Assembly (NCBI RefSeq): GCF_054482595.1
Contig: NZ_CM137008.1
DNA length: 64,000 nt
Direction: 5' to 3' (one strand)
How positions within the stretch are numbered: the first letter of the stretch is position 1; every line of letters begins with the position of its first letter. Shown here one piece after another: positions 17,944 to 20,294 of this stretch. The notes beneath the pieces were generated by a model. The model worked only from the letters and a program-made list of their open reading frames with translations, was not told the origin of the DNA and did no database searches. Made by a program: the position numbers and the translations under genes.

Positions 17944-18632
17944 CGTTTTTCCCTTATAATTACAGACGCGCACTAGCTGTGCTGGGTTAGTAATAATCCA
18001 ACATTTTTATCCTGATTATGTTTATAAAAGCGAACGTTTGCTTAATAACTAACGTAAGTGGACCAGTTCTTCTAAGTGAACTTAAATGGAGTAGCAACAG
18101 TTAATTATAATAACGTTGCCATACAAACGCTATGCTCTTGCATGCTATGTACCTTTATATATTTATCAATCGGATACGAATCTAATAATAACCCTCATCA
18201 TTAATGCAACTAATCTTATCTATATATCATGTGATATGTTCTGTAACAAGTAAAATCAACATAAAAAATTCAGCAAAATTTAATATTCGTTCAACTAGCC
18301 GTCTCACATATGACATTATTAGTCAACTCCATTTGCCACAAAATGGCTATTTCATGGAGCGCAGTAATTTCTTAGTGGCTATTATCATGCTAATTCTTAG
18401 GTCCCTAGCGATTATTCCTGGCTGGTTCGTCAGCTTACGCCATGAGATTGTTACATTCCTTTTTATCCTGGAGATATGGGGGAACGCAGGAGATGATTTT
18501 TTCATCTACATTCGTTGGTAAATATAGCTTTGGTCACTACGTAGACTGGCCCCCTGAATCTCCAGACAACCAATATCACTTATTTAAGTGATAGTCTTAA
18601 TACTAGTTTTTAGACTAGTCATTGGAGAGCAG

Positions 18633-18998
18633 ATGATTGATGTCTTAGGACCGGAGAAACGCAGACGGCGTACTACACAGGAAAAGATCGCTATTGTTCA
18701 GCAGAGTTTTGAACCGGGAATGACAGTCTCCCTTGTTGCCCGGCAACACGGTGTGGCAGCCAGCCAGTTATTTCTCTGGCGCAAGCAATACCAGGAGGGA
18801 AGTCTTACTGCTGTGGCCGCAGGAGAACAGGTCGTTCCTGCCTCTGAACTTGCTGCCGCCATGAAGCAGATTAAAGAACTCCAGCGCCTGCTCGGCAAAA
18901 AAACGATGGAAAATGAACTCCTTAAAGAAGCCGTTGAATACGGGCGTGCAAAAAAGTGGATAGCGCACGCGCCCTTATTGCCCGGGGATGGGGAGTAA
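18633..18998 (+). CDS. insC: IS2 transposase OrfA (InsC)
   Basis: [56 protein letters not shown]... matches IS2 InsC as recalled. Confidence 0.85.
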
Positions 18999-19861
18999 GC
19001 TTAGTCAGCCGTTGTCTCCGGGTGTCGCGTGCGCAGTTGCACGTCATTCTCAGACGAACCGATGACTGGAAAGATGGTCGCCGCAGCCGTCACTCAGATG
19101 ATACGGATGTGCTTCTCCGTATACACCATGTTATCGGAGAGCTGCCCACATATGGTTATCGTCGGGTATGGGCGCTGCTTCGCAGACAGGCCGAACTTGA
19201 TGGTATGCCTGCGATCAATGCCAAACGTATTTACCGGATCATGCGCCAGAATGCGCTGTTGCTTGAGCGAAAACCCGCTGTACCGCCATCGAAACGGGCA
19301 CATACCGGCAGAGTGGCTGTGAAAGAAAGTAATCAGCGATGGTGCTCTGACGGGTTCGAGTTCCGCTGTGATAACGGAGAAAAACTGCGAGTCACGTTCG
19401 CGCTGGACTGCTGTGACCGTGAGGCACTGCACTGGGCGGTCACTACGGGCGGCTTCAACAGTGAAACAGTACAGGACGTCATGCTGGGAGCGGTGGAACG
19501 CCGTTTCGGCAACGAGCTTCCGGCGTCTCCAGTAGAGTGGCTGACGGATAATGGTTCATGCTACCGGGCTAATGAAACACGGCAGTTTGCCCGGATGTTG
19601 GGGCTTGAACCGAAGAACACGGCGGTGCGGAGTCCGGAGAGTAACGGCATAGCAGAGAGCTTCGTGAAAACGATAAAGCGTGACTACATCAGTGTCATGC
19701 CCAAACCAGACGGGTTAACGGCAGCAAAGAACCTTGCAGAGGCATTCGAGCATTATAACGAATGGCATCCGCATAGTGCACTGGGTTATCGCTCGCCACG
19801 GGAATATCTACGGCAGCAAGCCAGTAATGGGTTAAGTGATAACAGGTGTCTGGAAATATAG
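18956..19861 (+). CDS. insD: IS2 transposase OrfB (InsD), DDE catalytic domain
   Basis: 301-aa ORF overlapping insC in another frame (IS3-family frameshift arrangement); sequence matches IS2 InsD as recalled. Confidence 0.85.
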
Positions 19862-20294
19862 GGGCAAATCCACTACGACTTAAACCTTCCTCAATCACAG
19901 CCATTCGCCGGGCGATACGGCAAACAAACTAAGTGAAACATCATCCTGAAAACACCAACATCAACAAGCCTCTCCAGATCGACTTCAGAAGTGACCAGTT
20001 ACAAGCCACAAACCAGGAAACATATTTCATGATGAGAATTATGCTCAGCCTGATGGCGGGTAAACACTGATTTTCACCAAGCTCACTGAGTTAGCTTGCA
20101 AAGCTTCCCTTGTTTAGACTCTAAATAAATTATTTATAAAACAAATAGTTAAACAAAAATCTTTAGTTTTTGAAGACCACTGCAAGTGTTCGTCTGGCTT
20201 CACATGGCATCTTCCTCTTAGAAAAAGATCGACATATTTTGTGACACGAATTGCAAATCTGGTTTTGTTGTATGGATTGCGTGATTTTTGATCT

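Follow-up and report, generated by a model that had tools for sequence, protein, structure and literature searches.

What becomes of the distal control of fimB when a mobile element comes to lie between the gene and its remote activator sites? In Escherichia coli K-12, NanR and NagC activate fimB, and sialic acid and N-acetylglucosamine (GlcNAc) tune FimB-dependent switching down. How readily E. coli makes type 1 fimbriae depends on the OFF-to-ON switching that FimB drives, and the NanR and NagC sites act on fimB from unusually far away. The question is raised here by a 64,000-nucleotide stretch of DNA (NCBI RefSeq assembly GCF_054482595.1, contig NZ_CM137008.1; hereafter the window) from an E. 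coli strain that differs very little from DETEC-C31, in which a full-length copy of the insertion sequence (IS) IS2 lies in the adenine-thymine (AT)-rich nanC-fimB spacer, upstream of an intact fimB. It is near certain that this copy arrived by a simple, recent and strain-specific transposition. As to its effect, the insertion may weaken, without necessarily abolishing, the NanR- and NagC-dependent activation of fimB, a reading of the sequence to which we give about an even chance.

The insertion and its empty site

The element is exactly 1331 base pairs (bp) long and has its left end facing fimB, as established by reading and by a scripted check; its first letters are TAGACTGGCCCCC and its last GGGGCAAATCCA (coordinates in Table 1). 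On either side stands the direct repeat CTACG, of exactly 5 bp and without extension beyond. The empty site reconstructed by deleting IS2 and one CTACG (800 bp) finds 100% full-length matches in 15 complete E. coli genomes. DETEC-C31, whose genome is the closest (99.9% match over window positions 20,000-44,000), shows 100.000% identity in direct comparison for positions 1-15,914, 16,211-18,541 and 19,871-25,371, which amounts to about 24 kilobases (kb) of flanks, and over 25 kb it departs from the window only in lacking IS2 and the duplicated CTACG and in the inversion of fimS. Because of the 100% empty site and these perfectly matching flanks, chance and misassembly are excluded. A preliminary account made from the letters alone (hereafter the sequence-only reading) had described an intact IS2, inserted by simple transposition with a 5-bp ctacg duplication, and had pointed to IS-free alleles as the proper comparison; the ends, the open reading frames and the single CTACG of the IS-free genomes all bear this description out.

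No copy of the exact IS2 junction turned up in 5,426 complete E. coli genomes, the GTDB species representatives or the JGI metagenomes. Matches with at least 80% coverage among the 5,426 genomes were considered as occurrences of the same junction and rejected, as they were IS2 copies elsewhere in the spacer. Judged by these comparisons, the inserted copy is restricted to one strain background.

By its sequence, the inserted element is an IS2 isoform that is about 4.4% diverged from the K-12 copy and widely circulating. It aligns with IS2K of MG1655 from base 1 to base 1331 with zero gaps, 59 substitutions and 95.6% nucleotide identity, a borderline value under the convention that isoforms share at least about 95% nucleotide identity with the reference element. 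Its two terminal inverted repeats can be aligned to each other with one gap. The insC and insD frames are both open, overlap and stand in a -1 frame relation; in IS2 and its IS3 relatives, the A6G motif serves the -1 frameshift by which the OrfAB transposase is made. The proteins score well above the cut-offs of the NCBIfam models for IS2 TnpA (276 bits, cut-off 229) and IS2 TnpB (710 bits, cut-off 597) and carry the Pfam domains rve (4.6e-19), rve_3 and HTH_21, with 10 amino-acid changes in InsD relative to K-12; RefSeq names the IS2 copies at nanC-fimB sites merely "IS3 family transposase". Copies that are 100% identical occur in at least 25 other E. coli chromosome or plasmid records, and 383 records match at 99% or above. 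From the intact reading frames and ends, and from the identical copies at many loci, we infer that the inserted copy is competent for transposition.

A degraded IS2-like remnant also lies in the window, on the minus strand at 47,181-47,794 and 48,047-48,793. Its insC- and insD-like frames are broken, and it retains an end resembling the left terminal repeat (48,764-48,793, three mismatches). Fragments of another transposase adjoin it, which suggests an IS-scarred island.

Architecture of the fimB control region

The position of the insertion relative to the fimB promoter was obtained by anchoring on a SlyA operator. In McVicker 2011 (PMC3173223), O_SA1 (TTAGCATGATAA) is placed at -179 to -168, with O_SA2 (CTAGGGACCTAA) directly upstream. 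With O_SA1 fixed at these positions, the fimB start site falls at 18,214, and the IS2 insertion therefore at -327. The distance from the fimB ATG to the IS2 end is 598 bp, in agreement with the figure of about 600 bp in the sequence-only reading. The same paper describes H-NS footprints from about -500 to +150 at fimB and derepression of fimB in an hns mutant (PMC3173223); the -327 insertion falls within this H-NS-bound tract.

The distal activator sites lie on the other side of the element. The CATATTT cores of the two probable NagC operators, at 20,021 and 20,233, are exactly 212 bp apart, in agreement with the spacing reported for O_NC1 and O_NC2, and both blocks are identical to K-12, with a few single-nucleotide polymorphisms relative to K-12 between them. 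The GGTATA repeats of the NanR operator are found at 20,295-20,309. Over the whole distal half of the spacer, identity to MG1655 is 99%, with no change in the operator blocks; because the blocks are identical to those of K-12, the K-12 data transfer directly. In those data, NanR and NagC operators lie "around 760 and 470 bp upstream" of fimB (PMC3173223). In the empty site the cluster spans about -471 to -768, and with IS2 in place it spans -1807 to -2104, so that the 470-760 bp placement typical of the K-12 module no longer holds in this allele.

The insertion thus adds, at -327, 1336 bp of foreign, GC (guanine-cytosine)-rich DNA, duplication included, and destroys no known cis element. All known NanR and NagC sites are distal to IS2, whereas the promoter lies on its fimB side together with the SlyA, H-NS2 and H-NS3 sites. 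The sequence-only reading had likewise put the NanR operator on the far side of IS2 from fimB, and had named fimB-proximal NanR or NagC sites as the arrangement that would speak against its view; with the O_SA1 anchor, the operators (20,021-20,318) prove to be distal.

Elsewhere the fim cluster is undamaged: it is identical to that of DETEC-C31, where no pseudogene is annotated. The fimS switch occupies 15,907-16,219 between the inverted repeats TTGGGGCCA and TGGCCCCAA, and is in the opposite orientation in DETEC-C31 (ON). In the window, the fimA promoter (TTGAGA-18-TATGAT, 16,171-16,200, plus strand) points toward fimE, i.e., the switch is in phase OFF. As a phenotypic read-out of the IS2 insertion, this state was rejected as uninformative, since 4,458 of 4,725 assemblies (94%) have the same orientation.

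Predicted effect on fimB and alternative readings

The sequence-only reading had suggested that the insertion could uncouple fimB expression, and hence OFF-to-ON switching, from sialic acid and GlcNAc. The insertion pushes the O_NC2-IHF-O_NC1-O_NR cluster away from fimB and keeps the promoter and the SlyA, H-NS2 and H-NS3 sites in place. Activation by NanR and NagC would then be weakened because the activators stand about three times further from the promoter. The 270 bp downstream of O_NC2 are reportedly dispensable, and operators moved nearer to the promoter are reported to give more activation, which implies a dependence on distance. With weaker activation, basal fimB expression would fall, as would the rate at which FimB switches type 1 fimbriae from OFF to ON, and the repression exerted by sialic acid and GlcNAc would be blunted. 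Close to the promoter, control by SlyA would continue as before and control by H-NS would likely be retained, though IS2 interrupts the H-NS-bound tract. Switching is limited by the level of fimB expression: in a slyA mutant, approximately 4-fold lower fimB expression led to more than 12-fold lower FimB recombination (PMC3173223).

The element itself offers no obvious compensation. No sigma-70-like site was found across either IS2 junction at the scan threshold, and hence no obvious compensating outward promoter; the scan likewise found no terminator-like site within IS2. A hybrid outward promoter at the right terminal repeat was considered by eye and rejected, as the -35-like TGGAAA would pair with TACGAC, a poor -10. 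The transposase genes are transcribed toward nanC, away from fimB.

Several points weigh against a loss of activation. Even without IS2, NanR and NagC work across 470-760 bp, and a further 1.3 kb may be tolerated; such long-range action may proceed either through RNA polymerase contact or through a change in DNA structure. Furthermore, the individual effects of NanR and NagC are smaller than that of SlyA (PMC3173223), so the loss may be modest. The splitting of the H-NS-bound tract (about -500 to +150) could have an opposite effect.

Somewhat less probable than weakened activation, yet a serious contender, is that IS2 is a neutral passenger: the spacer would be a permissive, AT-rich landing zone for IS2, NanR/NagC activation would tolerate the extra 1.3 kb, and fimB regulation would be essentially unchanged. 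The distribution of IS2 across genomes is consistent with this view. A search with spacer plus IS2, in both orientations, placed the element within or beside the spacer in 41 genomes that carry it in the present orientation and in 32 that carry it reversed. Hit geometry puts it inside the nanC-fimB spacer in at least 30 genomes, compared with about 6.5 to be expected if the 24,437 IS2 places of the genome collection were spread uniformly, a comparison for which significance is not claimed, the genomes being clonally related and AT-rich intergenic DNA being generally permissive. Precise mapping of 20 other insertions gave 11 other positions in or at the edge of the spacer, hit independently and in both orientations (Table 1), with clean 5-bp duplications in 19 of the 20; the 20th, that of O9:H10 Res13, has one original flank left. 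Exact reuse of -881 and -1090 among the 12 mapped positions points to target preference and not to a specific selected outcome. In addition, the allele is found in no other genome and so has not spread, and the stretch that holds the insertion point is reportedly dispensable for activation. On the other hand, the distance between operators and promoter is said to matter, and only 3 of the 12 sites (-21, -308 and -327) lie between the operators and the promoter; this paucity may reflect purifying selection, or just the lower AT content there.

The other IS2 sites fall mostly in the stretch from the NanR operator to nanC, at -877 to -1147, and would there act on nanC but leave fimB alone. In one lineage, IS2 at -21 splits the fimB promoter between its -35 and -10 hexamers. 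O9:H10 strains share the right junction of that lineage; on the left, fimB is gone and the duplication is missing, in what looks like an IS2-adjacent deletion. XL1-Blue was rejected as a spacer insertion, its hit being an unrelated partial match beyond fimB.

It is unlikely that the insertion acts in the opposite direction, i.e., that GC-rich IS2 splits the H-NS tract, weakens silencing and raises fimB expression, in the manner of the known activations by IS insertions upstream of bgl or flhDC. Such derepression would fit the position of the insertion within the footprinted tract, the response of fimB to hns mutation (see above) and the contrast in composition between IS2 (52.7% GC) and the spacer (35.9%). 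However, the H-NS2 and H-NS3 sites (about -170 to -200), which are the ones shown to matter, and H-NS1 are still contiguous with the promoter. Moreover, fimS is OFF in the assembly, which is weak evidence, and no precedent for IS activation of fimB was found among the papers searched.

Slightly more doubtful still is the proposal that the spacer insertions were selected, those at -21, -308 and -327 for uncoupling fimbrial switching from sialic acid and GlcNAc, and those at -877 to -1147 for uncoupling NanC expression from the same signals. Lastly, that the assembler collapsed or misplaced an IS2 copy into the spacer can be dismissed for practical purposes: although most E. coli carry several copies of IS2 (median of 4 places per genome) and repeats are a frequent source of misjoins, the 5-bp duplication is perfect and is single in identical empty sites, both flanks are colinear with DETEC-C31 and 100.000% identical to it, and target-site duplications do not arise from misjoins.

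Features of the window and comparison with known systems

The features discussed above are collected in Table 1. Past nanM and nanS, positions of about 23,776-34,781 hold large genes and look like a defence-type island; the DETEC-C31 annotations there include a phosphorothioated-DNA-binding restriction endonuclease, a DEAD/DEAH helicase, a DNA methyltransferase and an SNF2-related protein. Positions 20,000-44,000 are covered to at least 80% in only 7 of the 5,426 genomes.

Table 1. Features of the nanC-fimB region in window coordinates, followed by IS2 insertions mapped in other genomes, given relative to the fimB start site.
Feature	Position	Strand	Remarks
fimB coding sequence	17341..17943	-	200 amino acids from ATG 17943; intact; identical to DETEC-C31 fimB WP_000790583.1
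fimB start site (inferred, 18214) and promoter	18214..18249	-	-10 TATATA 18221-18226; -35 TTGTTA 18244-18249; 17-bp spacing; hexamers read from sequence
SlyA operators O_SA1 (18382-18393) and O_SA2 (18397-18408)	18382..18408	-	exact matches to PMC3173223 motifs; overlap H-NS2/H-NS3; fimB side of IS2
Left target-site duplication CTACG	18537..18541		-323 to -327 from fimB start site; single copy in empty-site genomes
IS2 isoform, full-length	18542..19872	+	1331 bp; 52.7% GC, within spacer of 35.9% GC
IS2 left terminal inverted repeat (IRL)	18542..18583	+	41/42 vs K-12 IS2K; fimB side
insC (orfA)	18633..18998	+	121 amino acids from ATG; identical to K-12 InsC (121/121)
A6G slippery motif AAAAAAG	18950..18956	+	insC/insD overlap; IS position 409, same as K-12
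insD (orfB)	18956..19861	+	301 amino acids; 291/301 vs K-12 InsD; rve DDE core and helix-turn-helix
IS2 right terminal inverted repeat (IRR)	19832..19872	-	41/42 vs K-12; nanC side
Right target-site duplication CTACG	19873..19877		abuts IS2 right end
Probable NagC operator O_NC2	20019..20045		CATATTT core at 20021; ancestral -471, now -1807; fits published "around 470"
Probable NagC operator O_NC1 with adjacent GATC (20227-20230)	20227..20257		CATATTT core at 20233; ancestral -683, now -2019
NanR operator O_NR	20290..20318		GATC at 20290, then GGTATA-N3-GGTATA-N3-GGTGCA 20295-20318; identical to MG1655; ancestral -740 to -768, now -2076 to -2104
nanC coding sequence	20735..21451	+	intact; divergent from fimB
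IS2 in other genomes	-21		EcPNK006, NT1F25, ETEC6, 2017-03-3CC; duplication GTGAT
IS2 in other genomes	-308		HCP8S3_I1, MSB1_1D
IS2 in other genomes	-881		two genomes, opposite orientations; GAGAT
IS2 in other genomes	-934 and -935		one genome each
IS2 in other genomes	-1058		one genome
IS2 in other genomes	-1068		one genome
IS2 in other genomes	-1090		M10, S30, NDM2, HCM-22C-2; GACAC; different IS2 isoforms
IS2 in other genomes	-1101		one genome
IS2 in other genomes	-1147		one genome
IS2 in other genomes	-1225		one genome; within nanC

What is new here is this allele only: the landing of an IS in a regulatory spacer is a familiar event, the fimB control region has been studied well, and neither a new element nor a new mechanism is involved. 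A literature search for IS2 or any other IS in the nanC-fimB spacer found nothing relevant. The allele adds a further case of an IS moving into the control region of a virulence gene and, together with the 100%-identical, IS-free DETEC-C31, provides a natural near-isogenic pair for the distance dependence of NanR and NagC action.

Among known systems, the element is closest to the K-12 IS2 of the IS3 family (IS2K, insC6/insD6), with which it shares the length of 1331 bp, the terminal repeats, the orfA/orfB layout, the position of the A6G motif, InsC and the 5-bp duplication; it differs in its 59 nucleotide substitutions and 10 InsD changes, as a separate isoform. The other natural IS2 insertions in the spacer are alike in element family, spacer and clean 5-bp duplications, but occupy other positions in other strain backgrounds, and none has the -327 junction. 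The nearest of them, at -308, is only 19 bp from the present insertion, has the same orientation and also parts the operators from the promoter.

Mobile elements have also been described within fimB itself. ISEc55 interrupts fimB in clade C of sequence type 131 (ST131), where type 1 fimbriation is delayed (PMC7671891), and IS1 lies in fimB of E. coli B (PMC5379014). A mobile element that bears on FimB-dependent phase switching is common to these cases and, as a predicted effect, to the present one; in ST131 and E. coli B, however, the coding sequence is broken, whereas in the present allele neither fimB nor its core promoter is damaged and the change is confined to the upstream architecture. 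The IS insertions upstream of bgl and flhDC resemble the present one in their target, which is AT-rich upstream DNA bound by H-NS and remote from the promoter. They are known activations, whereas the effect chiefly expected here would be a loss of distal activation.
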